64,000 bases of DNA. Origin: an uncultured delta proteobacterium. Its GTDB lineage: Bacteria; Desulfobacterota; RBG-13-43-22. Below the pieces are notes generated by a model. The model worked only from the letters and a program-made list of their open reading frames with translations, did no database searches and was not told the DNA's origin. The stretch spans positions 96,001 to 160,000 of the forward strand of contig CAVUPH010000013.1 in NCBI GenBank assembly GCA_963743305.1. The letters are read 5' to 3'. The position numbers were made by a program, and so were the translations under genes. Shown here piece after piece: positions 13,404-31,264 of this stretch. Numbering within the stretch: position 1 is the stretch's first letter; every line of letters starts with the position of its first letter.

Positions 13404-13438
13404 AGAAGCAATAGGGCTTATTAAGAAAATCTCCTGGC

Positions 13439-14281
13439 ATGGACAAACTGATCATTACCGCGGCTTTGACCGGCGCCGCCCCCACCAAGGAGCAAAATCC
13501 CGCCGTTCCTTACAGCCCGGAGGAAATCGCGACCGAAGCCCTGCGGTCCTGGCGGGCCGGGGCCGCTATCGTGCATATCCATGTTCGCGATCCCCAAAGC
13601 GGGAAGCCGGCCTTTAAAAAGGAACTCTTCGCCGAGGTAGTGGATCGAATCCGGGCGGAGAGCGATGTGCTCATCAACCTGACTGCCAGCGCTTTTAACC
13701 TGGAAGGACCGGAAGTGGGCCTCCGGCGTCTCATGCCTTTGGAGCTGGAACCCGACCTCTGTTCCCTGGATGTGGGCAGCCTCAATTTCCGTGGCGGCCG
13801 GGTCTTTGTCAATCCTCCGGATTGGGTGGAACTGGCGGCTGTGGAAATGCGGAAGGCCGGGGTAAAACCGGAGCTGGAAGTCTTTGACCTGGGACATGTC
13901 CGCCAGGCCGTCGATCTGCTGGAAAGAGGTCTTCTGGACGATCCGCCCTATTTTCAGATTTGCCTGGGTGTGCCCTGGGGGATAAACGGCGACCTGGAGG
14001 GACTTCTGGCCATGAAAAATCGCCTGCCCCCAGAATGCCAGTGGTCCGTAATGGGGGTAGGGCCCACGCAGCTCCCGTTGACCACCCAGGCGCTGCTTCT
14101 GGGCGGACACGTCCGGGTGGGGTTTGAAGACAATCTCTACCTGAGCCGGGGGATGAAGGCCGACTCCAATGCCCGGTTTGTGGAACGGTCCGTCGCTCTG
14201 GCGAAGCTGCTGAACCGGGAGGTGGCTTCCTGCACCGAGGCGCGGGAAATCCTCAGGCTTCCTTCCCGCGGGAACTCCTGA
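13439..14281 (+). CDS. Beta-keto acid cleavage enzyme (3-keto-5-aminohexanoate cleavage family)
   Basis: IITAALTGA, GAAIVHIHVRD, KPELEVFD, GGHVRVGFEDN motifs. Confidence 0.92.
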   Translation: MDKLIITAALTGAAPTKEQNPAVPYSPEEIATEALRSWRAGAAIVHIHVRDPQSGKPAFKKELFAEVVDRIRAESDVLINLTASAFNLEGPEVGLRRLMPLELEPDLCSLDVGSLNFRGGRVFVNPPDWVELAAVEMRKAGVKPELEVFDLGHVRQAVDLLERGLLDDPPYFQICLGVPWGINGDLEGLLAMKNRLPPECQWSVMGVGPTQLPLTTQALLLGGHVRVGFEDNLYLSRGMKADSNARFVERSVALAKLLNREVASCTEAREILRLPSRGNS

Positions 14282-14430
14282 TCATCTGAATTTATACCTC
14301 ACACCATTGCGGTGTGGTTAGATAAAGAAGGCTTTTAAGACAAATTAATAATCAATAATGATGGTTTGCAAGATTGTCAATTATTAACCGTTTCGGTTCT
14401 ATGTACATATTAATGAGGGGCTGATTATTC

Positions 14431-15366
14431 ATGCCTGAAATTGGAATTATCGGCGCCGGGACCATGGGCCACGGCATCGCCCAGTGCTTTGCCGTCAAAG
14501 GGTGGCAGGTCAGGCTATATGATGTCAACCGGGAGGTCCTTGACAGCGCCCCGGTCCGCATCCGTTCCAATCTGGAACTCTTTATGGAATGTGGATGGGC
14601 TCAACCGGAGTCCGTCGAGGCAGCTCTTCGGAATATTGCTTTATCTGAAGACCTGCCTTCGACCGTCCGGACCCCTGAGCTGATCATCGAATCGGTCAGC
14701 GAAGAATTGGACCTCAAGCGCCGTCTCTTTGCGGAATTGGAGGAGCTGACCATTCCGGAGACCATTCTCTGCAGCAATACCTCGGCCTTGAGCATTACCT
14801 CCATCAGCCGAGGTCTGAAACACCCGGAACGGGTCCTCGGCACCCATTTCTGGAACCCGCCCCATATCCTGCCCTGCGTGGAAGTAATCAAAAGCGAAAC
14901 CACTTCCGACCGGGTTTTTGAAGAAGTCGTCTTCCTGTTGGCCGGTTTGGGCAAGGAACCGATCCGGGTGCTCCGGGATGTGCCCGGGTTCGTAGGCAAC
15001 CGCATGCAACACGCCCTGCAGCGGGAGGCCATGAACTTGGTGGACCAGGGGATTGCCGCGCCGGAGGAGGTGGACCGGGTGGTCAAATTCGGCTTTGGCT
15101 TGCGTCTGGCCCTGATGGGACCGCTGGAGCGTTCCGACTGGGGTGGGCTGGACATCACTTACCGGGTCCAAAAATATCTGCTGCCCTACCTCTGCAATGA
15201 TACCAACCCCTCACCGCTGCTGACCCGGAAAGTGGCAGCCGGGGAGTTGGGAGCCAAAACCGGGCAGGGCTGGTATGACTGGCCGGAGGAGAAAAAGGCT
15301 CGGGCTATTAAAGAGAGAGATCGGCGATTGATTGAACTCATTCGATTGACGCGCCAGGAAGGATGA
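14431..15366 (+). CDS. 3-hydroxyacyl-CoA dehydrogenase
   Basis: GAGTMGHGIA, SNTS, GTHFWNPP, PGFVGNR motifs. Confidence 0.92.
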   Translation: MPEIGIIGAGTMGHGIAQCFAVKGWQVRLYDVNREVLDSAPVRIRSNLELFMECGWAQPESVEAALRNIALSEDLPSTVRTPELIIESVSEELDLKRRLFAELEELTIPETILCSNTSALSITSISRGLKHPERVLGTHFWNPPHILPCVEVIKSETTSDRVFEEVVFLLAGLGKEPIRVLRDVPGFVGNRMQHALQREAMNLVDQGIAAPEEVDRVVKFGFGLRLALMGPLERSDWGGLDITYRVQKYLLPYLCNDTNPSPLLTRKVAAGELGAKTGQGWYDWPEEKKARAIKERDRRLIELIRLTRQEG

Positions 15367-15507
15367 TTTCGCAGAAAATTCCAAACTGACATACCGATCG
15401 AAGTTGTTTACCACCAAAACCCCCGTCTAAAAACCCTTTGCCTTCCCGTCTGGTTTGAATAATAATCAGTAACTCGGCTAACGTTTCTAAATGCAAAAGG
15501 AATATCC

Positions 15508-18192
15508 ATGGACCAACGGAAAGTGCTCTACCTGATTGATGGCAGTTCCTATATCTACCGGGCCTTTTACGCCATTGCCCACCTGTCCAACAGCAAAGGG
15601 ATGCCCACCCAGGCCATTTACGGGTTCGTCCAGATGGTGAACAAAGTTTTGGAAGAGCAAGCGCCCCAATACCTGGCCCTGATATTTGATGCCAAAGGCC
15701 CCACCTTTCGCCACGAGATCTTTCCGGATTACAAGGCCACCCGGCCCCCCATGCCGGAGGCCCTCCAGGTCCAGATTCCTTATATTAAGGAGGTCAGCCG
15801 GGGTTACGGCTTTCCTATCTTAGAAAAGGCGGGGATGGAGGCCGATGACTTGATCGGCACCCTGGCCCTGGAGGCGGAAAAAAAAGGATTTGAGGTAGTC
15901 ATCGTTTCCGGAGATAAGGACCTGATGCAGCTTATTTCCAAAAAGGTCTGGATGTGGGACACCCTGAAGGATCAGGTCTTTGACTTGAACACCGTCCAGG
16001 AACGCTTCGGCACCACCCCTAATCATGTCCCCGACGTGATGGGCCTATCGGGCGACAACAGTGACAATATCCCCGGTGTCCCGGGCATCGGGGAGAAAAC
16101 CGCGAAGAAACTGATCCAGGCCCATGGTTCGCTGGATAAGCTGCTGGCGAACCTGCCCAACGTCACTCCGCCCAAGATACGGGAGAAAATCGTCGCCTTT
16201 CGGGAACAGGCCCTCCTGTCCCGGCGTCTGGCCACGATCGACACCGGTGTTTCCCTGGACCTTTCCGTAGAGGAACTGAAGCCGGGGCCGGCGGATTTGG
16301 AAAAATTGAAGGCGCTGTTTACCGAACTGGAGTTCAAGAAATTCCTGGACGGGCTGGGCGAGGTGACGGAGGTGCGCGACCACCCCCGGGACTATCAAGG
16401 GGTTTTCGAGCAAAAAGACCTGGAGCGGATCATCCAGCAGATCAAGAAAGCCGGCCGGGTATCCCTGGACCTGGAAACGACCTCGGCGGACCCCATCCGG
16501 GCCGAGATCGTGGGCATCGCCCTCTCCTGGAAAGAGGGTGAAGGTTTTTATGTCCCCGTAGGCCACACTTATTTAGGCGTCCCCGATCAACTACCGCGGG
16601 ACCGGGTGCTGGCCGAACTGACCGACCTGATTCAAGATTCCCGGATCGCCAAAATCGGTCAAAATATCAAGTACGAATGGCTGGTTCTGCGCCGTTACGG
16701 GTTGGATTACCAGGGGATCGCCTTCGACACCATGCTGGCTTCCTACCTGCTCAACCCCGGCCGCCGGGCGCATAACCTGAATCAGATCGCCTGGGAACAC
16801 CTCAATCAAAAACTGATCACCTACAAGGAAGTGGTGGGCTCGGGTCCCAAGGCCTTGAATTTCAGTGCCGTGCCGGTGAACCGAGCCGTGGAGTACGCGG
16901 CTGAGGATGCGGAGGTCACCCTGACGCTGGCGGACTTGCTGGGACCGCTGCTGACCAGGGAGGGGTTGGACGATCTGTTCAGGGAAATGGAAATGCCTTT
17001 GATCACCGTGCTGGCCGAAATGGAGTGGCAGGGTATTCGGATCGACAGCCGGTCTCTCAGCGATCTGTCCAAGGAGTTGGAGGGGAAATTAAATCAGATC
17101 GAGGAGCAGGTCTACACCCTGGCCGGGGAACGCTTCAATCTCAACTCCCCGCAGCAGATGAGCCGGATCTTGTTCGAAAAACTGCAACTGCCCTCCGCCA
17201 AGAAAACCAAGGGTAAAAGCCACAGCTCCACGGACGCCGAGGTCCTCCGGGACCTGGCCGTGCAATACCCGATCGCCGCGGAAATCTGGAACTATCGTAC
17301 CTTAAGCAAGCTGAAATCCACCTACGTCGACGCCCTACCGAAGCTGATCAACCCGGAGACCGGGCGGCTGCATACCTCCTTCAACCAGACCGTGACGGCT
17401 ACCGGTCGGTTGAGCAGCAGCGAGCCCAATCTGCAGAATATCCCGGTACGCACCGAGGAGGGGCGCCGCATCCGACAGGCCTTTGTGGCCGAACCCGGTT
17501 GGGTGCTGCTGTCGGCCGACTATTCCCAGATCGAACTGCGGGTCATGGCCCATTACAGTCAGGACCCCAACTTGATGGCCGCCTTTCAAGCCGGGGAGGA
17601 TGTGCATACCCGCACGGCCGTCGAATTGTTCAACGTGCCTTCCGGTGAGGTGACCGCGGATATGCGTCGTCAGGCCAAGGTGATCAATTTCGGGATCATC
17701 TACGGCATGAGCGCCTTCGGTTTATCCAAGGAATTGGGGATCGGGGCCCGGGAGGCCCAGGAAATGATCGACCAGTACTTTTTAAAATATGAAGGCGTAA
17801 AACGCTTTTTGGATCAGACGCTGGCGGAAGCCCGGGAAAACAGGTTTGTCACCACCCTCTTCAACCGGCGCCGGATCATCGAGGAAATCAACAGCTCCAA
17901 CCGGGTGGCCCGTCAGTTCGCCGAGCGCACGGCCATCAACACCCCCATTCAGGGGAGCGCCGCCGACCTGATCAAGATGGCCATGATTGTGATCGACCGG
18001 GAAATGAAAAAGCAGGGTCTGCGGGCCCGAATGCTCCTTCAGGTGCATGACGAACTGGTGTTCGAAGCGCCGGAGCAGGAAGTCGAGGCGCTGAAAAAAC
18101 TGGTCAGGCAGCACATGGAAGCGGCCATGGAATTGCGGGTCCCGCTGTTGGTGCAGATCTCCACGGGGCGGAATTGGGCCGAGTTAAAATAA
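15508..18192 (+). CDS. polA: DNA polymerase I
   Basis: 894 aa; DGSSYIYRAF (5'-3' exo), DLETT (3'-5' exo), TGRLSSSEPNLQNIP, DYSQIELR, QVHDELV. Confidence 0.98.
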   Translation: MDQRKVLYLIDGSSYIYRAFYAIAHLSNSKGMPTQAIYGFVQMVNKVLEEQAPQYLALIFDAKGPTFRHEIFPDYKATRPPMPEALQVQIPYIKEVSRGYGFPILEKAGMEADDLIGTLALEAEKKGFEVVIVSGDKDLMQLISKKVWMWDTLKDQVFDLNTVQERFGTTPNHVPDVMGLSGDNSDNIPGVPGIGEKTAKKLIQAHGSLDKLLANLPNVTPPKIREKIVAFREQALLSRRLATIDTGVSLDLSVEELKPGPADLEKLKALFTELEFKKFLDGLGEVTEVRDHPRDYQGVFEQKDLERIIQQIKKAGRVSLDLETTSADPIRAEIVGIALSWKEGEGFYVPVGHTYLGVPDQLPRDRVLAELTDLIQDSRIAKIGQNIKYEWLVLRRYGLDYQGIAFDTMLASYLLNPGRRAHNLNQIAWEHLNQKLITYKEVVGSGPKALNFSAVPVNRAVEYAAEDAEVTLTLADLLGPLLTREGLDDLFREMEMPLITVLAEMEWQGIRIDSRSLSDLSKELEGKLNQIEEQVYTLAGERFNLNSPQQMSRILFEKLQLPSAKKTKGKSHSSTDAEVLRDLAVQYPIAAEIWNYRTLSKLKSTYVDALPKLINPETGRLHTSFNQTVTATGRLSSSEPNLQNIPVRTEEGRRIRQAFVAEPGWVLLSADYSQIELRVMAHYSQDPNLMAAFQAGEDVHTRTAVELFNVPSGEVTADMRRQAKVINFGIIYGMSAFGLSKELGIGAREAQEMIDQYFLKYEGVKRFLDQTLAEARENRFVTTLFNRRRIIEEINSSNRVARQFAERTAINTPIQGSAADLIKMAMIVIDREMKKQGLRARMLLQVHDELVFEAPEQEVEALKKLVRQHMEAAMELRVPLLVQISTGRNWAELK

Positions 18193-18220
18193 AAAACCGC
18201 ACCCTCGGGTGCGATTTTTT
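18192..18220. terminator. Bidirectional intrinsic terminator between polA and vapC
   Basis: A-tract, CGCACC-CTCG-GGTGCG hairpin, T-tract. Confidence 0.75.
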
Positions 18221-18644
18221 ATGAAGGGACCCGCCATTTCAGCCCCGGGAACCGGGCATAGTCGCGGTCGAGGGTAATCCATTCACAGCCCGACTCGATG
18301 GCCAGGGCCGCAAACCAGGCATCCGGGGCCAGGTTGCCGCGGGCGTCTGCCTCGAGGCATAGGCGGGTAAATATCCCCCAGTGCCGTTCCCCCGGTTGGA
18401 TGATCAGACCTTGGGGTTGGGCTAACAGGATTTCACAGAATCCGACAACCTCGTCCAGGCCACTCGGCTCCTTAAACACCTTCGGATGGGTGGTAATTCG
18501 AATAAGACCGCTCAAAACCTGGGGAGACATCCCAAAACGTCCCTCACCGTTGACGACCTCCTGAAGCCACTTTCTGCAAACCGAATGGTGCGAGGCATCG
18601 GACCGGAAGGCGTGAACCAGGATGTTGACATCGGGAAGAATCAC
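18219..18644 (-). CDS. vapC: PIN-domain VapC toxin
   Basis: MILPDVNILVHA, PDAWFAALAIE, TLDRDYARFPGL. Confidence 0.9.
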   Translation of the reverse strand: MILPDVNILVHAFRSDASHHSVCRKWLQEVVNGEGRFGMSPQVLSGLIRITTHPKVFKEPSGLDEVVGFCEILLAQPQGLIIQPGERHWGIFTRLCLEADARGNLAPDAWFAALAIESGCEWITLDRDYARFPGLKWRVPS

Positions 18645-18881
18645 GGCTTATCCATAACTTCTTCCAGTTCCCCTGACCGATTGAGGTCCACACCCGGAAG
18701 GACTCCCTCCCGAGGCCTTAGATATCGGCAACTGAACCCGCTTCCGGCGGTCACCCTTCGCTGGGGACAGGACCATGGTCAGACCCTCTTCGATCACCGA
18801 GGTGAGGGCTCTTCCCTCATCGGCCGCCCGCTTTTTTGCCCGTCGCAGGAGATCGTCTTTTATTCGAACGGTTGTTCTCAT
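18641..18881 (-). CDS. vapB: VapB/CopG-like antitoxin (one +1 frameshift near 18706)
   Basis: MRTTVRIKDDLLRRAK RHH start; removing one G gives ...SGGVLPGVDLNRSGELEEVMDKP* overlapping the vapC start. Confidence 0.8.
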
Positions 18882-19063
18882 GCATATAAACATATAAATA
18901 TTGCATCAATATGTCAAGTAGAAAAAACCGGACCGATAGGGGTAAAAAATTTTAATTGATATTATAGTAAAAATCCGATAAAAAAGCAGGTGATTCAGAT
19001 TACAAAAAGAGAGTCATCGTTAACCCTCACCCTGGAGGAAGGCGATCCAAACCAAAGCCTCGT

Positions 19064-19091
19064 TCTAAATTCTTAAAACGGGGCTTTTTTT
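19064..19091. terminator. Intrinsic terminator-like hairpin
   Basis: AAAGCCTCGTT...AACGGGGCTTTTTTT. Confidence 0.55.
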
Positions 19092-19103
19092 ATAACAAGA
19101 AAA

Positions 19104-19445
19104 CTAAAGAGCCAGGCTTAATCTAAGTGCCTGGTCAACCTCTTCCATTTTCTTCTCTTCAATGAGGCCCAATCTTTTTTCCAGTCGATCTTTGGAAACC
19201 GTGAGGATTTGGCCGGCTTTTACGATGGAGGGTTTAGTCAATCCTCCCTGGGGTGGTTCGATCAAGACATTCATGGGATAAATTCTGATGGCGGCCGAAA
19301 GGGCGGCGACAATCGTGGTGGAGGCATGTTCATTGCCAATATCGTTTTGAATAACCAGCGCGGGCCTTTTCCCCGCCTGTTCGTTTCCGCGGGCAGGATT
19401 CCAGTTGACCAGCCAAATTTCACCGCGTCGGGGAAAGGGATTCAT
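19104..19445 (-). CDS. mazF: MazF/PemK endoribonuclease toxin
   Basis: RRGEIWLV, GNEQAGKRPALVIQND, QILTVSKDRL. Confidence 0.92.
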   Translation of the reverse strand: MNPFPRRGEIWLVNWNPARGNEQAGKRPALVIQNDIGNEHASTTIVAALSAAIRIYPMNVLIEPPQGGLTKPSIVKAGQILTVSKDRLEKRLGLIEEKKMEEVDQALRLSLAL

Positions 19446-19675
19446 CGCAACATTTTCCTTTGGACCTCAAAAGCCCATTCGGCCCATTGCCTGTCTTCTT
19501 CCGCCATTTCCCGGTATCCCTTCCTCATCAAAGTCCCAGTCTGCTTTGTTAACCACAGGGAAAGGGCTTCCTGGGCTACTTGGCTGCGAGCCATCTTAAA
19601 ACGCTTGCTGGCTTGGTCAATAGCCGTGCATAATCCTTCGTCGATGGTAATCGTTATTTTCTTTTTGGTTTGCAT
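19442..19675 (-). CDS. Ribbon-helix-helix antitoxin (MazE/NdoAI-like)
   Basis: KITITID RHH strand, MRKGYREMA tail; 4-nt overlap with the toxin gene. Confidence 0.85.
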   Translation of the reverse strand: MQTKKKITITIDEGLCTAIDQASKRFKMARSQVAQEALSLWLTKQTGTLMRKGYREMAEEDRQWAEWAFEVQRKMLR

Positions 19676-19781
19676 AATACCCCCAATAAATCAGATTTTT
19701 TATAAGATATTATGACATATTAATTATCCTGTCAATTTCTATATTTTAAACGGGACTTTCTGGTTAGGAAAGGTCATCGAA

Positions 19782-22700
19782 ATGACACTGACAAGAAATA
19801 CCCCAAGCAGAAGCAGTCGCCCAATCCTCCGGAAAGCTGTTCCCCGGGAGCGGCTTTTTGAGCGGCTGGACCGCTTTTGGGAAGGCCCGGTCATCTGGAT
19901 CTCCGGTCCGGGGGGCTGCGGCAAGACCACCATGGCCAGTTCCTACCTGCAGGAACGGGGTATCCCCAGCCTCTGGTACCAGGTCGAGGAGGCCGACAAA
20001 GACCTGGCCACCTTCTTTTATCATTTGGGAGCCGCCTTTAGCAGTGCTTTCCCTAAACGAAAAAAAACCCTGCCCCTTTTGACCTCGGAATATCTTCAGG
20101 GCATCCCCACCTTTGCCAGGCGTTTTTTTAAGGAAGCCTTCAGCCGCTTGAAACCCGGGACCACACTCGTTTTCGACAATGCCCAGTTCATTCCGGAAAA
20201 TTCAATCGTCCAGGAGGTTGTTCTCCTGGGGGTGAACGAAATCCCCCAGGACAAGCACCTGGTGCTGATCAGCCGGGGGACCCCGCCCCCATCCTGGATC
20301 AGGCTTCAGGCTAACCAGCAATTGGGGCTCTTGACCTGGGAGGACCTGCGCCTGACCTTAGAGGAAACAGTGGAGATCGCCCGACTGCGAGGCGACCGGG
20401 ACGCTCCCGCAAGAGACGATTGAACACGTGCACGCCCTGGCGGACGGCTGGGCGGCGGGATTGATGCTGATGTTGGACAGCCTGAGCCAGAGGGATCGAT
20501 CTCCCGGCGGTGGAGGAAACCACCCGGGAGGGGATCTTCCATTATTTTGGAAATGAGATCTTTGCCAGGATCAGCCCGGAGGTTCAGGATTTTTTTCTGC
20601 GGACAGCCTTTCTGCCTCAAATGACCATCGGTATGGCGGAAGACTCTGACAGGCCTCCCCCAGGCCGGTTCCATCCTGTCCGCGGTGATGCGGAACAATT
20701 ATTTTATCGAGCAGCGATACCTCCAAGAGCCGGTTTACCAGTACCACCCTTTGTTCAGAACATTTTTACGCCGTAAGGCCAAGGTCATTTTTGACCCGGA
20801 ACCTTTCAAGGAATTAAGCCGGAAAGCCATTCACCTTCTGGAAACGGACGGGCAGATCGAAGAAGCTTTCCATCTGGCCCGGGAAGCGGATGACCGGGAA
20901 ATGATAAAGCGGATCATCCTTCAGCAGGCCCCAACACTGCTGTGGCAGGGAAGGTACCTTCTGCTGGCGGAATGGCTGGACGGCTTACCAGGCGATCAGA
21001 TTGAACAGGATGCCTGGCTTCTGTTCTGGAAAGGAACCGCCCGGTATCTTTATGATCCAGTTCCAAGCCGGGATCTCCTGGAGCGGTCTTATGAAAAGTT
21101 CAAGCAAAATGAGGAAATAGACGGGATGCTGCTGGCCTGGTCCACGGTCATTCGAGCCATCATTCAATGCACGTATGACCAGTTGGACCATTGGATTGAT
21201 GAACTTGAACTCCATATCCGGGATCCTTTCCAGGAATTTCCTTCTCCCTGGATAGGGTCCCAGGTTTCCACCTGTATGTTTTCGGCCCTGACCCAGAGAC
21301 AGTCCGGTCATCCGGAGATAGAGCAATGGGCGGATCGCGCCTTGGCCCTGACGGAGGCCCCTGAATTTAAATACGATAGAATGATGGTTCTATTCCATCT
21401 GATACTTTACGGAATCTATGCCGCCCGTTTTGATAAGGCCACCCTGGCGCTGGAACTGCTCAACTCGTTGAACCAGACTCTGGAAATACAGTCGGTCAAT
21501 CGTGCCTGGGGCTACCTTGGAGAGGCCATATTTTTTGACATGGCGGGCTTCCCGGAGAAATGCGAAAAGGCCGTTTCCGAGGGTCTTGAGTTTTCCCGAA
21601 CCTTGGGCTTCCATGCCGCGGACGATTTATTGCTGTTTCACGCCATCCAGAATTCATTGAATATGAATGACACCGAAAAGGCGCGCCTGTTCATTAACCG
21701 GTTGTCAACCTCCTCGAACAGCCCGGGGATGGAAAACAGGGCTATGGCCACCCGTGATCAATACTTATATTGTTTAAGTTTAGCCAGAGAAGAACTTATT
21801 CGGGGAGCCTACGATCAAGCCGCCATTCATGGAGAGGAGGCCCTGCGTTACGGGATCGAGACCGGCGCTCCGTTCATTTTCGGGGTCGCTTATTTGCTGA
21901 ACGCCGTTATTCTGAATCACCGCGGGATGGATGATAAGGCCCGGGAATACCTTTCCCAGGGCTTGGCCTCCTCCCGACAGATCAAGAGCCCATTCCTGGA
22001 ATTCAATGCCCGGCTGCAGCAGGCCTATATGGCCTTCAAGAACCAGGAGGAGAACCAGGGCCTCATGTTTCTCCGGGAAGCGTTGATCCTGGGGAAGGAA
22101 GCGAAGTTATTGAATACCTACATTGATTGTCCGGCCGATACCGCCTTTCTCTGCGAGAAGGCGCTGGAAGAGGGGATCGAGGTGGAATATGTCCAGGAAA
22201 TCATCCGCCGGAGACGACTGGTGCCGGAAAGCCCTCCGGTTCATCTGGAAAATTGGCCCTGGCCGTTAAAGGTGTACACCCTGGGGCAATTCAAAATTTA
22301 TAAAGATGGGCAGCCCCTCCGTTTCTCCCGCAAGGCCCAACAGAAGCCCCTCGATCTGCTCCAGGTCCTCATTGCCACCGGGGACAGAGGCATCCGGGAT
22401 GAGGAATTGGCCGATGCCCTCTGGCCGGAGGCCGACGGGGATGCAGCGGCCCAAACGTTAAAGACCACGCTGTATCGGCTTCGCCTGCTGATCGGCAAGG
22501 ACGAGGTGGTTAAGGTCCGCGAAGGGCGGGTGAGCCTCGATTACCGTCATTGCTGGACCGACGCCTGGGCCTTTGAACAGCTTCTAGGAGAGGCTGATCG
22601 GAGCAATTCCCAGGCCGCCCTTCCGCTGCTGGAAAAGGCCATCGGGTTATACCAAGGCCCTTTTCTGGTCCGGGGAATGGAGGAGCCCTGGCTGCTGTCC

Positions 22701-22997
22701 GCTGCGGAAAGGCTGCGCAGCAAGTTCCTGCGCGGGGTTGAAAAATTGGGATCTTTCTGGAGCCGAGGCGGGGAGTGGGAGAAGGCCCGTGAGTGTTACC
22801 GGAAAGGGCTGGAAGTGGACGGGTTAGCCGAGGAATTCTGCCAGGGCTTGATGCTGTGCTGCCAAAACCTGGACTTGAAGGCCGAGGCTCTATCTCTATA
22901 CAAGAATTTTGAGAAGAGACTTAAAACGGAACTGGGAATCGAACCGGCCGCCAAAACCAGGGCCTTACGGGACAGCTTGCTGGGAGGGGCGTTATGA
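19782..22997 (+). CDS. MalT-like ATP-dependent regulator with C-terminal SARP/BTAD domain (three +1 frameshifts at about 20410, 20505, 20642)
   Basis: Walker A GPGGCGKTT, WEDLRLT, GWAAGL, YQYHPLFR, TPR-like core, TLGQF..wHTH, LWPE, LYQGPFL, ELGIEP; consecutive pieces in frames 0, 1, 2, 0. Confidence 0.85.
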
Positions 22998-23109
22998 GGG
23001 GAGTAGAGAGAAGACAGAACAGAGAAGAGAGATAAAAGATGGAAGATGGAAGAAAAAGACAGGGGGAAGAGGGAAGAGTGAAGAAAAAATTAGACAGGCC
23101 GGAGGCCAT

Positions 23110-23250
23110 AGCGGTGAAGGAAGCCTTGACCAGCCTCAAGGGTATGGTTCCCAAACCTGAAAAGAAATTGTCGTTGGAGGAGATGGACGAGGCTATTGCT
23201 CAAGAAACCAACCGGTGATCGGGTTGGACGCTAATGTCCTGGCCTTATGA
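23110..23250 (+). pseudogene. Remnant AbrB-like antitoxin C-terminus and PIN toxin N-terminus
   Basis: SLKGMVPKPEKKLSLEEMDEAIA* overlapping GTG ATC GGG TTG GAC GCT AAT GTC CTG (MIGLDANVL), then a stop. Confidence 0.6.
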
Positions 23251-23479
23251 TCAGGAAGCGGCGGAAGACGATCTGTTTCGCCTTGTCCCGCTTTGATCTG
23301 CCCGGCTTGGTCGACCACTTCCACCCCGGTTACCCTGGTCCCACCACTCCAACTGGATCCGCTTCGCTTGATCCACCATAACATAGATACTCTCTTCTCT
23401 TTTCTCTCGTCTTCCTTTCCAATCCGGGTCCAGCGGCCAATAAAATTCAATCCCCTCACTTTTTTTCCATTTCCCTCTA

Positions 23480-23516
23480 ATCTGTAACCTATCTGTAACC
23501 TCACCCCGGGTAATCT
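23480..23516 (+). promoter_or_regulatory. Tandem 11-bp direct repeat with candidate -10 box (SARP/wHTH-type site)
   Basis: ATCTGTAACCT x2 (23480-23501), then TAATCT at 23511-23516. Confidence 0.55.
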
Positions 23517-23682
23517 ACCGCCATTCGCAGAATGCAATCCCTTTTCCCCGCCCTCTCCAGCATGGAGGTAAATAAAGGGATAAGGAGGTGATTATTTAAC
23601 GGGAAAAAAGGTTGGACGGATGGTCAACCGAATAGAAAACACCACCCAGGTTCCGTTTAACACCAAAAAGGAGGATGCGAAC

Positions 23683-23982
23683 ATGGTAAGATGGACAAGA
23701 AGTGTTAGGATTGCGCGTGGAAAACCCTTAGAAGCCATGCAATGGGCCAAGGAGATAACGGAATGGATCAACAAAAAATACAACCTCCAGACGAAAGTTT
23801 ACGTGGACTCCTTCGGCGAGGTTGGAACCCTACGCTGGTTCGTTGACCACGAAAGTCTTGCCGTCCTGGAGAAGAGTTGGGATCAGTTGCTTGGAGACCA
23901 AGAATACTGGCAAAAAGTCAACCAAAGTAATGACCTATTCGTTGAAGATAGCCTCTTTGACACCGTCATGCGCACTATCTGA
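23683..23982 (+). CDS. Small dimeric alpha/beta barrel (NIPSNAP-like) protein
   Basis: AAGGAGG RBS; 99 aa; pattern ARGK..EA..WAKE...DHESLA..E...DQEYW. Confidence 0.65.
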   Translation: MVRWTRSVRIARGKPLEAMQWAKEITEWINKKYNLQTKVYVDSFGEVGTLRWFVDHESLAVLEKSWDQLLGDQEYWQKVNQSNDLFVEDSLFDTVMRTI

Positions 23983-24002
23983 GTTGACCTAAGGCCAAGA
24001 GC

Positions 24003-24045
24003 AAAGGCAGGGCCGAAAACGGGTATTTGGCCCTGCCTTTTTTTT
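24003..24045 (+). terminator. Intrinsic terminator
   Basis: AAAGGCAGGGCC...GGCCCTGCCTTT followed by a T-tract. Confidence 0.85.
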
Positions 24046-24123
24046 AAAAAGACTCAATCCTTAAACGTCCTTTTGGGTCGGCAGATTCAGGCAAAGTTAG
24101 CCTGCTGGGTCGATTGAGGGGTC

Positions 24124-24302
24124 ATGAATCCGGTCGTCAATTACATCATTCGGATCTACCGGTGCGAAAAGGACCGACCCCAAAGTCTGGTGGGGGTCGT
24201 GGAAGAGGCGGGAAAAAGGGGAAAAAGGCCTTTCAGAGCTATGATGAGCTTTGGGATATTTTGAATTCACCAAAAAAAAGCGAAACATCTAAGGAAGGAT
24301 GA
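24124..24302 (+). CDS. Small conserved hypothetical protein, about 59 aa (one -1 frameshift in an A-run near 24225)
   Basis: NYIIRIYRCEKDRPQSLVGVVEE joins KAFQSYDELWDILN after adding one A. Confidence 0.6.
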
Positions 24303-24377
24303 GGAGGTGATCAGGTAACGGGTAAATAGATTTGGCGGATAGTCAACCGAATAGAGAAAATTAGAAGGAGGTGTCCC

Positions 24378-26085
24378 ATGCCAAAGAACTTTAATGGCCT
24401 GGCCGAAGGGCTTTCCCAGAAATCAATATTATCCGGGAAAACCTATTTTTTCCATCCTGGAACAAACGGCAAAAAGGGTCCCCAATCGACTGGCCATCAT
24501 TTTCGCCGGTACCGAAATCACCTATGCCGAACTCAAGGAACTTGCCGAACGCTTCGCCTCGGCCCTTGTTGATCTGGGAGTTCAAAAGGGCGACCGGGTT
24601 TCCATTCATCTGGTAAACTGCCCCCAATTCGCCATTGCCTATTACGCCATCATGAGAATCGGTGCGGTTTTCACGCCTCTCAGCCCGCTTTCTTCGCCCA
24701 GAGAATTCACCTATCAGCTCAATGATTGCGGGGCCGAAACTTTAATTACCCTGGACCTCTTGTATCCTGGGATCGCTTCGGCCATTCCTCAGACCAAGGT
24801 CAAACGGATGATCACCACCAGCCTGGCCGACTGTTTTAACCCGATTACCGCTCCGCTCAAACCCCTGGGCAAGATGGTTGTACCGGACACCCTCGATATG
24901 GCCCCTCTCTTGATAAAATACCCACCTTTCACCGCCCAGGTGGATATCGATACGGCGAACGATGTGGCCCACCTGGCCTATACCGGAGGCACGACAGGAC
25001 TTTCAAAGGGTGTTGTTCTAACCCATGCCAATGTCGAGGCCAATGTCCTTCAATTCGGGAACTGGAGCAGCGGCGCCGTTGTGAAGGAAATAGACGGTGT
25101 CTGGGAAGCGGTGTACCCGGACGGTGTTGAACTATCTGCTTTGCCGATCCGGCAGGACGAGGAAACCTCCATCGTGGTTGTGCCCTGGTTTCATGCCATG
25201 GGAACCGTTGGGTATCTTAACGCCCAGATATATGGCGGATATACCATGGTGGTGCTGCCGAGGTTCGATCCCCAAGAGTATCTGGATGCCATTGTCAAAT
25301 ACAAGGCGACCTTTATCGGCGGCGCCCCGCAGTTGTATATTCCCTTAATGAATCATCCGGATTTTGAGAAATACGACCTTTCCCACATAAAGAGAGCCGT
25401 TTCAGGCGCCGCACCGCTTCCTGTGGCGATATTCGAAAAACTTGCCGGTGCTTTCGGCGTGGAATACATCAGCGAAGCCTATGGCTTGACCGAGTGTACC
25501 ATGGGGGCCACGATGACTCCTCCGAGCGCAGCGGGCGCCCGGGCGGGATCCGTCGGTCTGCCGGTTTTTGATACCGAAATCAAAATCGTGGAGGTCACCA
25601 CCGGAAACGAACTTCCGGCCGGACAGGAAGGTGAGGTTTGGATCAAGGGTCCCCAGGTCATGAAAGGGTATTACAACAAACCGGAAGCCACCGCGGAAGT
25701 GCTGAAAGACGGATGGCTTCATACCGGTGACATCGGCAGGATGGATGAAGATGGATACCTTTTCATTACGGACAGATTGAAGGACATGATCATCTACAAG
25801 GGCTACAACGTCTATCCAAGAGAACTCGAAGAGATCCTCTTCCGGCATCCCGCCGTTGAACAATGTGCTGTGGTGGGTAAACCCGATCCGGATGCGGGGG
25901 AGATCCCGGTAGCTTTCATCAAGCTCGCTCCGGGCAAGGAGGCCATCCGTGAAGAAGTAATGCAATTTTTGAATACTGAGGTGGCGGCCTACAAAAAAAT
26001 CAGGGAGGTGATTTTTCTGAAGGAAATTCCCGTAAGCGGAGCTGGAAAGGTCCTGAAACGAGAACTGAGAGAACAATTGAAATAA
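24378..26085 (+). CDS. Long-chain fatty acid--CoA ligase (AMP-binding)
   Basis: YTGGTTGLSKG, EAYGLTE, GWLHTGDIG, GKVLKREL; the RBS favours ATG 24378 with a +1 slip near 24393, otherwise ATG 24394. Confidence 0.92.
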
Positions 26086-26208
26086 TAACGGGGCGATCCA
26101 TCATTTCTTTCAAGGGAAGAAGAAAGGAGGTGAGGGGCTTGGTTCTGTCGGCAGGGTAGATGTTGGATACCAATAACCATTAATGAACTCATTAAAGGAG
26201 GGAACATC

Positions 26209-26904
26209 ATGAATAGTTCAAAAATAACGAAGTGCTGCTTTATCGCAGCCGCCATCGCGCTACTAGCTGTGTTCGTGGCCGTTCCGGCCGGGGCGGGGGG
26301 CCTGGACCGAAGGCTCTACGGGGACTATACCTATAATGTAGCCGCAACTTGCGCATACGCTGTATGCGGCCCGGACCAAAACGGCAAATACGACTGCCAA
26401 TCCACTCCGGGGCTCAACCCGGATAATTTAGTGCGATTAATAACAGGAAGATCGCAAAGCTATAACGTCCTGGGTGTGATTCACTTTGACGGCCATGGGA
26501 AATCGACCCTTAAGGGGGAGGTCATGACTGTGCGTATTAGTCCGTCCACGGACCCGGTTGATATTCCGGCGACCCAGTCTGCCCTGGATTGCGTCGGCAC
26601 CTACGTAGTAGATTCTGAAGGCAATGAACTGTTTGTTGACATCACATTCACCAACTGCACTGGCAAGATCAAGCAGCCGGCGATCTTAGGGGCTTGGGAG
26701 TTTAATCTTACTGGTTCCACCACTGTCCGGGGACGGTTGGACACTGTCACTGGGAGCAGCACTGTGATCATAAGCAACACGTTACCCTACATAGAAGAAT
26801 TAGAGTATACTGCGGGACCCGCTAGCGGCATGAAAGAACAAAGAATCTGCAATAACATGGGAACCATAGTGAAGCTTTCACCGTGGCACTGGTTCTCAAA
26901 ATAG
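26209..26904 (+). CDS. Secreted hypothetical beta-rich protein with several Cys
   Basis: AAGGAGG RBS, signal peptide ending near PAGA, 231 aa. Confidence 0.7.
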   Translation: MNSSKITKCCFIAAAIALLAVFVAVPAGAGGLDRRLYGDYTYNVAATCAYAVCGPDQNGKYDCQSTPGLNPDNLVRLITGRSQSYNVLGVIHFDGHGKSTLKGEVMTVRISPSTDPVDIPATQSALDCVGTYVVDSEGNELFVDITFTNCTGKIKQPAILGAWEFNLTGSTTVRGRLDTVTGSSTVIISNTLPYIEELEYTAGPASGMKEQRICNNMGTIVKLSPWHWFSK

Positions 26905-27059
26905 CAAACGGACGACTCGAAAACTAAAAATTAGCCATTAAAGTTTGTCTCCAATTCCGGCAGGGCCGCCCTCGGCCCTGCCTCCCCTTTTTCCGGGGAA
27001 TAGAACCCATAAAGAAGCCAGCCGAGAATGACCTGTTCCGACCATTTTCCAGATGCTTC

Positions 27060-27195
27060 GTGAAAAAAGGTCGAGAGATCGAAAGGCTACCAGGTCAAGT
27101 TTGGAGTACATTTGGATGATCTCGAAATGATTATCGAGGGTCAATAACCTCAGACCGTTTTCAATAGCGACTTGGGCAATCAGGAGATCAACCAC
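27060..27195 (-). pseudogene. C-terminal fragment of a PIN/VapC toxin
   Basis: DLLIAQVAIENGLRLLTLDNHF with no N-terminal PIN half. Confidence 0.65.
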
Positions 27196-27219
27196 TCCTA
27201 CTGGCGAGGCAAATAGGGT

Positions 27220-28069
27220 CTATTGAATTCCCATTCGAAAGCGGTAACCTTGAAATCGAAAGACGATGCCCTTTGGATATATTTCCTCCACCCTGCAGCC
27301 CTTCGGTTGAAACCTGTCCTTCATGGAGAAGCTGCTCGTTGACCTGAACCAAGCGGTTCTGCGGCTCGGGGCTGTAAACGTGAGCCGAGATCTTCAACGG
27401 TGGTAGGGCGCTGCGGATATCGGCCGGCAAGTCGTTCAGGTTGAAAACCCGGTCGCTTGGCAGCGCCGCCGTTTTTGACGCCTTCCGGGGCGGCACCTTG
27501 GCCTGATCGGAGGTGGAGGCCTTTTTATCCGGAGGCGGTGGAGTTTTCTCCGGTTCGGTTGCCGGCACCCGCGCTTGGGGCGGTCCGGGAGAGGGTAGGT
27601 CCACCGGACTCTTGGGTGTCGCCGGAAACGAGGGCCGCTTCTCGGCAGGTATCGCCGTCTTGACCGGGTCGGAAACCGGCAATTTCTCCGGAGGGGCGAT
27701 TGAGGTTTTCCGGTCTTCCGGGCCCTTGGAGCCCGCCGGAGTCGGGGTCCGCTCCGAGGACTTCTTTTGGCGGTCTGCGTCCTGGACGAGAGAGGTCACA
27801 GGAGGGGGGGCGGCCGTGGGGCCCTGTTTGACGAGGGCCCGCTGGGGGAGTAGCGGGGCGGGTCGGGGCGGTCGGTATGGTCCCCGGAAAACAATCCACC
27901 AGAGCAGGACCATTACGTTGAGGATCAGCCCCACCGCGACCAGGGTTGGCCAATGGGCCCTGGGGCGGGCTTTCGGCAGGGTTGCGTCCGCCAGGGTCAG
28001 GGTTGGACGTTTTTCCCCCTGTTGCCTCTTCCGTTCGAGTTTTTTCAGGGCTTCCGGGATATAGGACAT
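27220..28069 (-). CDS. gspB: GspB/ExeB type II secretion accessory protein (+1 frameshift near 27292)
   Basis: MSYIPEALKKLERKR, TM helix, Pro-rich linker, LKISAHVYS; removing one G restores VEEIYPKGIVFRFQGYRF*. Confidence 0.8.
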
Positions 28070-28071
28070 AC

Positions 28072-28590
28072 CTAAAAGGACCCTTTCCCGTCGTGAAGCA
28101 CCGGGTCGTCGGTATCGGATGCACGACTCAACGGCATGATCGTCAGGGTGCCGACGATCCCGTCGGGCACCAGGCCCACGGACAGTTGGAATCGTTTGAT
28201 CTCCCGACCCAATGTTTGGTCATATTCGGGGTCCTTTTCGGTTGGTGAGGTTCGCCCCTGGGCCAGCGCCAGGTGACGCTTCAACCAGGCCACGATGGGA
28301 CCCCGGCTTCCTGGTTTCACGTCTCCCCGGTAATTAGGGGGTGCCCGCCAAAGCAGCAGGTATTCGCCTGTCCAACTCCGGTTAATTTCCTCGAGTTCAA
28401 CGACCCTGGCCCCCGTTTCGAGTACCACGTTGGCCGTTTTCCCCCGGAGGGAGGATGGCGCGTCGGCTCCGGCTGTGAATGGCCAGGAGATAGTCATGGA
28501 TGCCGGAGACCAGTGTCTGGTTCGTGGCCGGGCCCTCGGGCGGGCTGATCCCGAACTCCCGGCAGAGGGTAAACAGCAATTCCACTAGGA
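28072..28590 (-). pseudogene. Internally deleted ExeA/GspA remnant
   Basis: AAA-domain fragment (ELLFTLCREFGI...LLAIHSRSRRAIL) joined out of frame near 28451 to the C-terminal WTGEYLLLWRAPP and PG-binding (FQ...GL.PDGIVG) part. Confidence 0.75.
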
Positions 28591-28740
28591 ATTCAATATA
28601 CTATAGAAAAGATTGAAAAGGAAGCCTGGAAGGGGAACCATCGGGTTACGGTTCCGTGTAAAGATCGAGATTGCTTGGGGAGGACCTGGTGTGAACGTAA
28701 ATAGTTAAGTCCATTTAAAGGCAGTATAGGATAATTCGTA

Positions 28741-28769
28741 TTGACAATTATGATTTTAGATGCTAAAAA
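28741..28769 (+). promoter_or_regulatory. sigma70 promoter with overlapping palindromic MarR operator candidate
   Basis: TTGACA 28741-28746; palindrome TTTTAG-ATG-CTAAAA 28754-28768. Confidence 0.55.
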
Positions 28770-28775
28770 CAAAAC

Positions 28776-29225
28776 ATGTCCTTGCAAATCCTCAAGATAG
28801 CCGCGCAGATTCGCCGAGTTATCAACCGGTCCATGTTCCTGGAGAAACGGACCATTTTGCGCCATGAAGCCCTGCGGCTTTATCCCTCGGAAATCCATCT
28901 GCTGCAGGTCATCCACGAATCCCCGGAACTGAGCGCCGGGGAAATGGCTCGGAAGTTGGGCATCAGCATTGGAGCCGTGTCCCAGACCCTGAATCGGCTG
29001 GAGAAAAAAGGGGTTATCCATAAGACCAAGGACCCGGCCCTTAAAAACAGGCTGTCGGCCAGATTGACCGGGGTCGGACAAACGGCTATCCGGCAATTCG
29101 AACAAGGGCAGGAGGTTACGATGAAGGCGTTTTCCAGCTACCTGGGCGGATTGTCAAACGGAGAAAGAAAGGTTGTCGAGGGATTTCTATCCCACTTGGA
29201 GGAATTCTTGAAACGCCTGGAGTAA
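28776..29225 (+). CDS. MarR family transcriptional regulator
   Basis: LYPSEIHLL, EMARKLGISIGAVSQTLNRLEKKG, LT..G. Confidence 0.9.
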   Translation: MSLQILKIAAQIRRVINRSMFLEKRTILRHEALRLYPSEIHLLQVIHESPELSAGEMARKLGISIGAVSQTLNRLEKKGVIHKTKDPALKNRLSARLTGVGQTAIRQFEQGQEVTMKAFSSYLGGLSNGERKVVEGFLSHLEEFLKRLE

Positions 29226-29275
29226 TTTTTTTTGTAATATGTTTATAGTATCTAAAATCAAAAAGGAGGATGATT

Positions 29276-30019
29276 ATGAACAACAGTTTGCTGACCGGCT
29301 TTTGGCGTACCATGGTGGGAGTGCCTCCCTTTCTTTGGGAGAAACAGATTAAAAAGACAAGACAAAAAGTTACAAAGGCCATGGCTTTCATGTCACCGGA
29401 CCATCGCCGGGTTCATCACTATGTGGTCCGGGAGTTGCCGCGGATAGGGGGTCCGCTGGAGGCGGAAAGGGTGGCCCGGGATCTGGTCTTGTCCGTGGAG
29501 CGGACCATTGAAATTTTACAGGATCTGGAGAAGCATTTGACCTTTCTGGTTCGGAACGAGCAGGGGCAGGTCGTCTGGGCCTACCCGGTTACTGTGGAGA
29601 AAACCCCACACCGGATCAGCTTTGGATCAGGGGAGCAATTGTATTCTGCCTGAGCGGTGGACGCTTTCGCGACGCCCTTCGTGCAAGGGCGACTGAGACA
29701 GGAGCAGGTGGTTATTCAGGTGGAAACGGAATGCGCCCATTGTAAAGAGCCCATGCGCCTGGAAATCGACAGCGATATGCATTGCCATGGCCAGGAGTCC
29801 GGAGACAACTTGATTATTTTTGTCCCCGACGTGGATTTCGGACGCCTGAAAGATCCCACCATCATCGAGGCCTTCTGAAAAGAAAGCGTTTTCTTCCGGT
29901 CGGAAGAGCACGCCAGGGCGTTTCGAAGGAAAGAGCATCGAATCCGTGGTGCGTATTTCACCACCGTTCAGATCGCTTATTTAAATAAGGCCATCCAAAG
30001 CGCCATCTTTGGCTGGTGA
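29276..30019 (+). CDS. Second MerB-like protein with two predicted selenocysteines
   Basis: AGGAGG RBS; single frame through TGA 29651-29653 (AYPVT..TPHRI...LYSA-U-AVDA) and TGA 29876-29878 (IIEAF-U-KESVFFRSEEH), 247 aa; CAHC; hairpins after both TGAs. Confidence 0.85.
29673..29691 (+). promoter_or_regulatory. Putative SECIS for TGA 29651
   Basis: Perfect CGCCCTT-CGTGC-AAGGGCG hairpin 19 nt after the TGA. Confidence 0.55.
29886..29913 (+). promoter_or_regulatory. Putative SECIS for TGA 29876
   Basis: TTCTTCC-GGTC-GGAAGAG 12 nt after the TGA, extended by GCGT/ACGC; nearly identical to 12621-12638. Confidence 0.75.
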
Positions 30020-30037
30020 ATATCGGGGCGGAAGGAA

Positions 30038-31264
30038 TTAATCGGAGAATCGCTTTGAACTGCGATTATCCCCCAAGAGCCTTTTTTTGCGAACCGACTG
30101 AATGGCCCCGTCCAGACGTTGTAGGAAGAGGGATCGATCTTTCTTTTGGAAAGGCGCCGGTCCGCCGGCCAGGGATCCGGCATCGCGTAATTGGGAAAGG
30201 AGATCGCGGGTGGCCAAGGCATCCCCGATGTTCTCTTCGGTAAAGGGGCGGCCTGTAGGCCGGAGCACCAGAGCCCCCCTCCCCAGACAGCGGGCGGCCA
30301 GGGGGATATCCCCGGAGATGACAATATCATCTGCTTCCAGGTGATCGACGATATAGTTGTCCGCCGCGTCAAAGTGATTGGTGACGATGACCAGTTCAAT
30401 CCAGTCCTCCACCGGGGTGCGCATCCGGGAATTGGCCACCAGGATGACCCGTAATCCGTAGCGTTCGGCCACCCGGTATATTTCTTCTTTCACCGGACAG
30501 GCATCGGCATCGACAAAGATGTCTAGCAAGAAGGGTCCTTCCGCGGGCGACTTTTTTTGGGTCTGCGGCGCCGGCAGCGATCCCATCGATCGCCGGTCGT
30601 GAATCGGGGCCAGCCAGATGGTGTGTCGTCTCCTGCCCAGATGGCCCCAGGGCCGCACTTCCTCCACCCCGAAATCCGCGCGACGCAGGCGCTGGGCAAA
30701 GGCCTGATCGGGTCCGGCCGACCAAACGGCTAGGATCCCGTCCGGCCGGAGGGCCCTCCGAATGACCTCCAGACCGGTGACGTCGTAGATCCGGTTATTA
30801 CCTTTACTGATCAGGTCCGCGGGGCCGTTGTCCACGTCCAGCAAAATGGCGTCGTAAGCCTGGTATTCGGATTGGAGTATTTTGACGACGTCCTCTTCCC
30901 GGACACGGACCCGTGGGTCTTGAAGCGGGTTGCCGGCCAAATGGGCCAGGGGGCCCCGGAGCCACCGGACCACCGCCGGCACCAGTTCGGCTACCACCAC
31001 TCGGCCCTGAGGTCCGATCCGGCGCAGAACCGCCGCCGTCGTGAACCCCAGACCCAACCCCCCGACCAGGATTCGGGGGCCGGCCCGGTCGGCGATCCGG
31101 GCGCAAGCCAATTCGCCCAAGGCGTCCTCCGAACTGTGGGCGGTGCTGTTCATGATTTCCCGGCCCTCCATCCGGATCGAAAACTCCTCCCCGCGCTTAT
31201 ACAGACGCAGCTCTTGGTCGTTTCCGGGTACCGAGGCGGTATCGAGTAATTCCCAGGGAATCAT
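30038..31264 (-). CDS. Fusion of a spermidine-synthase-like SAM methyltransferase and YaiI/YqxD (DUF188)
   Basis: GGLGLGFT, LLDVDNGP (N-part); IFVDADACPVK, DAADNYI, DIPLAA (C-part). Confidence 0.8.
   Translation of the reverse strand: MIPWELLDTASVPGNDQELRLYKRGEEFSIRMEGREIMNSTAHSSEDALGELACARIADRAGPRILVGGLGLGFTTAAVLRRIGPQGRVVVAELVPAVVRWLRGPLAHLAGNPLQDPRVRVREEDVVKILQSEYQAYDAILLDVDNGPADLISKGNNRIYDVTGLEVIRRALRPDGILAVWSAGPDQAFAQRLRRADFGVEEVRPWGHLGRRRHTIWLAPIHDRRSMGSLPAPQTQKKSPAEGPFLLDIFVDADACPVKEEIYRVAERYGLRVILVANSRMRTPVEDWIELVIVTNHFDAADNYIVDHLEADDIVISGDIPLAARCLGRGALVLRPTGRPFTEENIGDALATRDLLSQLRDAGSLAGGPAPFQKKDRSLFLQRLDGAIQSVRKKRLLGDNRSSKRFSD

Follow-up and report, generated by a model that had tools for sequence, protein, structure and literature searches.

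A MarR-linked MerB-fold gene of an uncultured delta proteobacterium with probable selenocysteine at both metal-ligand positions

To our knowledge, MerB is the only enzyme known to break the mercury-carbon bond. The closest described relatives of the gene reported here are MerB (plasmid R831b; structures 1S6L, 3F0O, and 3F0P), MerB2 (5C17), and SaoL (NCBIfam NF040728), the last being a MerB-like selenoprotein that is encoded in the SAO locus and is described as an organometallic lyase in a preprint (bioRxiv 10.1101/2022.07.06.499078). Our gene lies on a stretch of 64,000 nucleotides (nt) of an uncultured delta proteobacterium of the phylum Desulfobacterota (assembly GCA_963743305.1, contig CAVUPH010000013.1, positions 96,001 to 160,000), hereafter called the window, directly behind a gene for a MarR-family regulator. 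Its frame runs through two TGA codons before it ends at a third, and it is almost certainly a real gene that encodes a MerB-fold protein with selenocysteine (Sec, U) at both metal-ligand cysteine positions, with the proton-donor aspartate kept. Together with its neighbor it forms, as we somewhat cautiously propose, a two-gene unit consisting of the gene of a MarR-type repressor and that of a MerB-fold di-Sec enzyme.

With MerB and MerB2 the protein shares the fold over approximately 205-220 alignment columns, in which the positions of Cys96, Asp99, and Cys159 align and C153 of the present protein aligns with Cys117. It differs from both in its low identity (ca. 17%), in the replacement of both ligand cysteines by Sec, and in the absence of Cys160, and it falls below the cut-offs of the two NCBIfam MerB models, NF009710 and NF033555 (58 vs. 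193 bits and 46.8 vs. 200 bits). The context of MerB is that of merR, merT, merP, and merA, whereas none of these genes stands beside the present one and no MerA above the cut-off was found in the genome. The resemblance to SaoL, insofar as that protein is described in the accessible part of the preprint, comprises the MerB fold (PF03243), Sec at the ligand position equivalent to Cys159, the retained Asp99 equivalent, the occurrence in anaerobes including deltaproteobacteria, and database entries that are shortened at the UGA. However, the SaoL described there contains only one Sec, as the second residue of a C-U dipeptide, its Cys96 position is still occupied by Cys, and its gene is part of a nine-gene operon with an ABC transporter, whereas our protein has Sec at both positions, the second one in F-U-K, and its gene has a regulator gene alone alongside. 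The SaoL model gives only 45.5 bits with our protein (cut-off 140), the match covering residues 68-169. An SAO neighborhood was not seen among the immediate neighbors of the gene in the window or at 75 related loci, the Sao families not having been searched genome-wide. In the accessible parts of two selenoproteome reviews (PMC13188914, PMC9312934) SaoL, with one Sec, is the sole MerB-like entry. The term "MerB" is absent from the main texts, supplements not covered, of PMC2398784, PMC5029168, and BSepDB (PMC13326102), and no two-Sec MerB-like family was found in the literature searched, coverage of which was incomplete and excluded supplements.

Reading frame, fold, and active-site positions

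Translation of positions 29270-30019 of the forward strand with TGA as U yields a single unbroken frame; with the standard code the same stretch gives open reading frames (ORFs) of 127 and 73 amino acids (aa) and a tail. The likely start codon is ATG 29276, which is preceded at 6 nt by the Shine-Dalgarno sequence GGAGG (29265-29269) and is also the position at which the orthologues start. The features of the gene, with reference to 80 related loci that are described below, are as follows:

29276-30019, forward strand: gene of the probable MerB-fold selenoprotein, 247 aa, stop TGA included
29651-29653, forward strand: UGA 1, predicted Sec126, equivalent of MerB Cys96 in the MerB and MerB2 alignments; TGA in 80/80 loci
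29660-29662, forward strand: codon of Asp129, equivalent of Asp99 in the MerB and MerB2 alignments
29674-29690, forward strand: selenocysteine insertion sequence (SECIS)-like hairpin 1, GCCCUU-CGUGC-AAGGGC, beginning 20 nt past UGA 1
29876-29878, forward strand: UGA 2, predicted Sec201, equivalent of MerB Cys159, followed by Lys and not by Cys; TGA in 80/80 loci
29887-29912, forward strand: SECIS-like hairpin 2, after UGA 2, with the inner stem UUCUUCC-GGUC-GGAAGAG (29891-29908) and a 3-bp outer stem
30017-30019, forward strand: third TGA, the stop codon

The frame of 247 aa through LYSA-U-AVDA and IIEAF-U-KESVFFRSEEH, with CAHC, that had been described in the initial annotation of this DNA was recovered in this translation, in which the cysteines stand in ETECAHC and WAYPVT, TPHR, and a C-terminal FGW directly before the TGA provide further landmarks. 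The annotation was wrong in taking AYPVT..TPHR for a MerB signature, since MerB has a different sequence there in the profile alignment; these residues are instead a signature of the present family.

Pfam MerB (PF03243) matches residues 108-240, a region that spans both TGAs, with 57.4 bits against a cut-off of 27 (expectation value (E) 1.9e-15), and the gene also scored above this cut-off in a family search of the whole genome. When a profile of 41 family members was compared with solved structures, MerB2 (5c17) was matched with E 8.2e-8 and MerB (1s6l and 3f0p) with E 4.7e-6. In the profile alignment, next to which a single-sequence alignment was made, U126 corresponds to Cys96, D129 to Asp99, C153 to Cys117, U201 to Cys159, and K202 to Cys160. 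The suggestion, made originally from the letters of the window, that the equivalent of Asp99 is retained is confirmed by the alignments to both MerB and MerB2, and so is the placement of the TGAs at the Cys96 and Cys159 positions. An AlphaFold2 model built on the 41-member alignment (predicted local distance difference test 84.8, predicted template modeling (TM) score 0.84) was searched against the PDB with Foldseek, where structures of MerB and MerB2 took each of the first 11 ranks (E 2.5e-11 to 6.5e-7, target TM 0.61-0.79). Asp129 is invariant, both at the 80 loci (80/80) and in the family alignment (41/41 sequences). Such a conserved pattern, Sec-x-x-Asp ... Sec in a protein of the MerB fold, speaks for a chemistry similar to that of MerB.

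Two further cysteines of the protein are conserved as well, C153 being invariant and C156 present in at least 90% of the sequences, and they allow the protein to be read in another way, i.e., as a diselenide/selenol redox enzyme (a reductase or isomerase) with a non-organometallic substrate, in which C153-x-x-C156 would be the resolving or relay center. We regard this as rather improbable. The counterpart of C153 in MerB, Cys117, is presumably structural and not catalytic, the full active-site pattern of MerB including the Asp is retained, and neither a downstream partner nor a thioredoxin-like or reductase gene is conserved nearby at the 75 loci, although the regulators that accompany the gene (see below) lack Cys ligands of the metal type, as would suit a redox enzyme. 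Bacterial selenoproteins are, moreover, mostly redox proteins according to the accessible part of one of the reviews (PMC13188914).

Conservation of the TGA codons and their proposed decoding

A gene that is interrupted by two TGAs could also be no selenoprotein gene at all, but a pseudogene with two nonsense mutations, a series of three short ORFs, or a gene written in a code in which TGA stands for Trp or Gly. Gene callers indeed split or shorten it. The comparison with relatives gives a different picture. Full-length orthologues occur in 9 of 61 related genomes (53-77% identity); both TGAs are kept in all nine, and the protein sequence after each TGA is well conserved. A scan of one genome per species revealed a relative in 169 species, and the U-x-x-D ... 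U pattern was present in each of the 80 best loci that were kept (47-77% identity), which derive from Syntrophales/Smithellaceae, Desulfomonilaceae, Desulfobacterales, Nitrospirota, Chloroflexota, and Abyssobacteria. When the phylum was sampled evenly (401 genomes, match threshold E <=1e-20), a match was obtained in 25 genomes, and in none of the 25 did it contain fewer than two TGAs: there are two in 23 genomes and three in G020 and G195, the match in G020 also containing a TAA. This conservation of both TGAs across relatives indicates that the gene is not broken. The initial annotation had named in advance an outcome that would speak against it, namely a lack of conservation behind TGA 29651 in homologs; instead, this region is conserved in every relative examined.

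Two possibly degraded copies were seen among the relatives. The orthologue in G020 (L015, G020:C6:349399-350067), with three TGAs and one TAA in the match, ends early after ...ARKFRI and may, from its sequence, be a decaying copy. In a sister genome an orthologue (L016/L018, G001:C7, ~205994-206211) matches residues 2-31 and 197-249 only and looks like the remnant of an internal deletion, the MarR gene still being present upstream.

In the protein databases the family is mostly hidden. Among the best 150 of 779 representatives (E <=0.001) most are fragments that end at residue 125, and proteins of 200 aa stop precisely at the site of UGA 2. Eight database proteins (P0011, P0015, P0021, P0070, P0077, P0081, P0083, and P0096) have Cys at site 1 and end at site 2, which shows that there are Cys/Sec forms of the protein. 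Among relatives at a greater distance (27-40% identity) the Sec sites are occupied by Ser and Cys or by other residues. Three of the full-length proteins (P0068, P0072, and P0076; 30-40% identity) have Ser at site 1, together with Cys (P0068 and P0072) or Arg (P0076) at site 2, and look like a separate branch without selenium. The Joint Genome Institute (JGI) entries P0002-P0009 and P0013 and the Logan-assembly entry P0010, all from short metagenome contigs, have W, and once G, printed at the Sec sites. This shows that the TGA was read under another code, and selenoproteins are hidden here as apparent full-length Trp proteins. The family, in which both metal ligands are predicted to be Sec, extends over 169 or more species genomes of anaerobes, and hgcA, the methylation gene, is carried by many of the lineages concerned. 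In the databases the family is cut to "hypothetical" fragments of 125 aa.

The hairpins were compared in 79 and 80 non-identical sequences, respectively, with proteins that are ~47-77% identical to that of the window. In hairpin 1 three of the six pairs are identical in all 79 sequences, two others vary to G-U wobble only, and the closing pair is broken in six; the codons CCC, TTC, GTG, and GGG are invariant (79/79). In hairpin 2 the codons TTC, TTC, and GAA are invariant (80/80), and the closing pair 22:27 is U-A in 64, C-G in 13, and U-G in 3 sequences and broken in none, a covariation that links the first base of an Arg/Trp codon to the third base of a synonymous Ser codon. We take the loops (CGUGC and GGUC) and the spacings to fit the published bacterial SECIS model. 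No conserved structure was found behind the terminal TGA, and a permissive Rfam search of positions 11000-31000 detected no SECIS and no other relevant family. Of the features by which bacterial selenoproteins are judged, the gene shows UGAs that align to Cys with conserved sequence downstream and a stem-loop soon after each UGA. In the proposed decoding, SelB with Sec-tRNA would read each UGA via its own SECIS hairpin, and the hairpin-less third UGA would terminate translation. One short bacterial gene would thus hold two UGAs, each served by a separate SECIS hairpin, and a third with the ordinary meaning.

The genome carries tRNA-Sec and selB (363.5 bits), as well as a selD gene that has its own UGA (G-U-A-S-K). 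Of its 1325 open frames with 400 codons or more, 482 end in TGA, which is, therefore, an ordinary stop in this genome. Searches with two models did not detect selA in the genome, which is 90% complete, and a frameshift divides selD (L006, G000:C26:74350-77907, ~721-2449, reverse strand) between two frames, be it through an error of the assembly or as a genuine defect. selA is, however, present in all sister genomes that carry the MerB-like gene (5/5). The incomplete Sec apparatus of this assembly, the 125-aa fragments that make up most database entries, and the W at both sites in some JGI calls on short contigs would all agree with the absence of a selenoprotein. Nevertheless, we reject the pseudogene and alternative-code readings, and consider it extremely improbable that no selenoprotein is made, because both TGAs are kept in 80/80 and 25/25 relatives, down to 47% identity, with conserved sequence after each, the two hairpins are preserved down to their synonymous sites and show covariation, Cys stands at the aligned positions of MerB and of some homologues, the genome commonly uses TGA as a stop, and selA occurs in the sister genomes.

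Regulator genes and operator-like palindromes

MarR autorepressors, such as MarR of E. coli, provide the described systems that are closest to the regulatory part of the locus, the nearest NCBIfam models being those of AdcR/ZitR and FabT. Shared features are the winged-helix MarR domain, short inverted repeats over the -10 element, and a regulator gene directly upstream of the presumed target. In contrast to these systems, the regulator of the window reaches no NCBIfam equivalog cut-off (FabT 44.5 vs. 200 bits; AdcR family 39.1 vs. 175 bits), it is cysteine-free, and a nearly leaderless mRNA is predicted for its gene. The neighbors of the MerB-fold gene in the window are this MarR gene and a convergent unrelated gene. 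The features of the regulatory part are:

28741-28746, forward strand: -35-like hexamer TTGACA of the putative marR promoter, from direct reading; TTGAC at the same spacing in 19/19 MarR-linked loci
28752-28770, no strand assigned: operator-like palindrome 1, GATTTTAG-ATG-CTAAAAAC, with the core TTTTAG-ATG-CTAAAA at 28754-28768
28776-29225, forward strand: gene of the MarR-family regulator, 149 aa; Pfam MarR 49.7 bits vs. 24.6, E 3.4e-13
29241-29259, no strand assigned: operator-like palindrome 2, GTTTATAG-TAT-CTAAAATC, with the core T(T)ATAG-TAT-CTAAA(A) at 29243-29257

The marR stop codon lies 50 nt upstream of the ATG of the presumed lyase gene, which agrees with the initial description of the MerB-like gene as sitting directly behind a MarR gene. 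Among 16 orthologues of the regulator E23 and H41 are invariant. The putative marR promoter was read by eye as TTGACA, a 17-nt spacer, and the -10-like TAAAAA at 28764-28769. Palindrome 1 overlaps this -10-like element and ends 5 nt ahead of the marR ATG; with the ATG only ~6 nt behind the -10 element the marR mRNA would be nearly leaderless. A consensus promoter scan gave no forward-strand promoter and no terminator for the MarR-lyase unit, and TTGACA-17-TAAAAA was not listed because TAAAAA lacks the required T at position 6. Palindrome 2 is located within the 50-nt spacer, just past the marR stop and a T run, and it adjoins the marR stop even where the spacer is ~90 nt long (19/19 loci).

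Related palindromes upstream of both genes had been noticed from the start, at the coordinates recovered here, and they hold up in the relatives: both sites are conserved in 19/19 MarR-linked loci examined, palindrome 1 with the consensus GTTTTTAG-N3-CTAAAAAC, although some left arms are imperfect. The pattern TTWTAGNNNCTAAAA occurs in the 64-kb window at these two places only (0.02 expected), and 0/100 shuffles reached three matches, a perfect palindrome being counted on both strands. With the looser pattern TT[TA]TAG-N3-CTA[AT]AA, applied to the forward strand only, three sites were obtained in the 4.9-Mb genome. A third genomic match to the operator motif, TTTTAG-GGA-CTAAAA at G000:C8:78781, could be a further MarR target. 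Judging from the placement and conservation of the two palindromes of the window, MarR probably controls the unit through them. A MarR dimer would occupy GTTTTTAG-N3-CTAAAAAC over the -10 element of its own promoter as well as the second copy before the lyase gene, and it would leave the DNA on binding a ligand that is sensed other than through cysteine. The regulator with its two conserved operators would thus offer a simple handle toward the inducer and hence the substrate.

This arrangement is not universal in the family. A MarR gene is the immediate upstream neighbor on the same strand in 21 of the 75 loci with a callable upstream gene, while at two further loci it is 639 nt away or cut by the contig end. 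A MerR-family protein of 172-199 aa is encoded directly upstream in 16/75 loci and a divergent transporter of the major facilitator superfamily in 4/75; the remaining upstream genes are unrelated. In a quick maximum-likelihood tree of 81 rows, with L026 and L028 counted as MarR-linked, the MarR-linked genes group together in a single clade (26 rows, MarR-linked in 23; Shimodaira-Hasegawa-like approximate likelihood ratio test 99), apart from a long-branch MarR-linked outlier (L097), and all 16 MerR-linked genes fall inside another group of 35 rows. The MerR-type partner (loci L046, L053, L055, L065, L067, L071-L075, L078, L081, L083, L096, and L098) has no invariant Cys, its conserved C-terminal part is rich in Trp, His, and Glu (W...WH.EFE.L.P..HQEFLEGLGI), and its effector domain matched no Pfam family. 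The initial annotation, which expected control by MarR rather than MerR and would have been called into question had the MarR-MerB pairing been confined to the window, was therefore correct on the recurrence of the pairing (21/75 loci) and, for one clade, on the pairing with its palindromes, but not for the sister clade, in which a MerR-type regulator takes this place (16/75 loci).

Possible function and a second two-Sec gene

The active-site pattern suggests a carbon-metal(loid) lyase, a function to which we assign about an even chance. The soft metal or metalloid of an organometallic compound would be gripped between the two selenolates and the carbon-metal bond would be broken by Asp-mediated protonolysis, as in MerB; the substrate would most likely be an organomercurial. 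Such a protein would provide a natural test of how a di-selenolate site affects the chemistry of carbon-metal bonds, and it would be a candidate for the turnover of organometals under anaerobic conditions.

Two Sec exactly at the metal-ligand positions would, however, also befit a non-catalytic di-selenolate trap or metallochaperone, in which the MerB fold binds or hands on Hg(II), Cu(I), or Cd(II) without any cleavage. MerB variants have been reported to bind other metals at this site, according to the accessible part of the preprint (bioRxiv 10.1101/2022.07.06.499078), and a trap would need neither a merA to accept its product, which does not reach its cut-off here, nor the pathway partners, none of which is conserved nearby. 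We consider such a trap unlikely, since Asp129, a proton donor that is needed only for protonolysis, is invariant in all loci and all sequences of the family alignment, the second two-Sec gene of the window (see below) has at this position a Glu, which is likewise an acid, and two costly Sec codons would be unusual for a stoichiometric binder.

In favor of mercury, a check of the genome for merA and hgcAB, as advised in the initial annotation, had a positive outcome for HgcA (455 bits vs. a cut-off of 275; L100, G000:C17:97597-101586) and a negative one for MerA (best 378 bits vs. 454). Because of its HgcA gene the organism is a predicted mercury methylator. It is conceivable, though in our view doubtful, that the family represents the methylmercury-degrading enzyme of strictly anaerobic, hgcAB-carrying bacteria without merA and canonical merB. 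If this is true, the selenolates would permit rapid protonolysis of the Hg-C bond at very low methylmercury levels, the gene would be turned on through a MarR or MerR-type regulator of its own, and the net production of methylmercury in sediments would depend on this lyase gene and on the supply of selenium.

Several observations weigh against the interpretation of the locus as an inducible lyase unit, and those given below on the regulators, the missing transporter and reductase partners, product release, and hgcA also weigh against mercury. No RNA run containing this DNA was found among 20 sequencing runs, and the DNA runs containing it had shares of 0.19 or less. The absence of selA and the frameshifted selD in this assembly have been mentioned above. 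No good -35 element lies ahead of palindrome 2. Neither of the partner regulators has a conserved Cys, which makes it less likely that they sense a thiophilic metal directly. Transport genes of the mer or sao systems are absent from the vicinity, and the downstream neighbors are heterogeneous (75 loci). The affinity of a di-selenolate site for Hg(II) would be very high and, with no MerA above the cut-off, the release of the product is left unexplained. The co-occurrence with hgcA is modest, i.e., in 15/25 genomes with the gene vs. 112/376 without it among the 401 related genomes, and outside the family to which the organism of the window belongs hgcA is found in 8 of 17 gene-carrying genomes; in view of this modest association, we do not use it as support.

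The window contains a second gene of this kind:

12141-12845, forward strand: paralog 1, MerB-like gene of 234 aa with two predicted Sec, the TGAs lying at 12411 (U-G-F-E) and 12606 (U-STMNLFRSEEH)

It shares 24% identity with the MarR-linked gene (E 4e-6) and was missed in a protein search of the genome with the latter; only the Pfam family search found it. Behind both of its TGAs there are hairpins whose loops contain GGU. In the relatives its family is represented by 25 matches that hold two TGAs each, with as many as four matches in a single genome, and the residue at +3 is Glu in 9/9 pattern-matched loci out of 12 loci examined, including that of the window. The initial impression of paralogs with Asp vs. 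Glu is thereby substantiated, the second one belonging to a conserved two-Sec family with Glu at +3. On this comparison two distinct predicted two-Sec subfamilies exist; that they have different substrates is a conjecture. Directly upstream of paralog 1 lies an ORF of 265 aa (11318-12115, forward strand) that is neither a MarR nor a MerR. Its C-terminus has a Cys-rich motif (C-A-S-C-K-K-I-R ... H-G-L-C-P-P-C), and the encoded protein may serve paralog 1 as a sensor or regulator.

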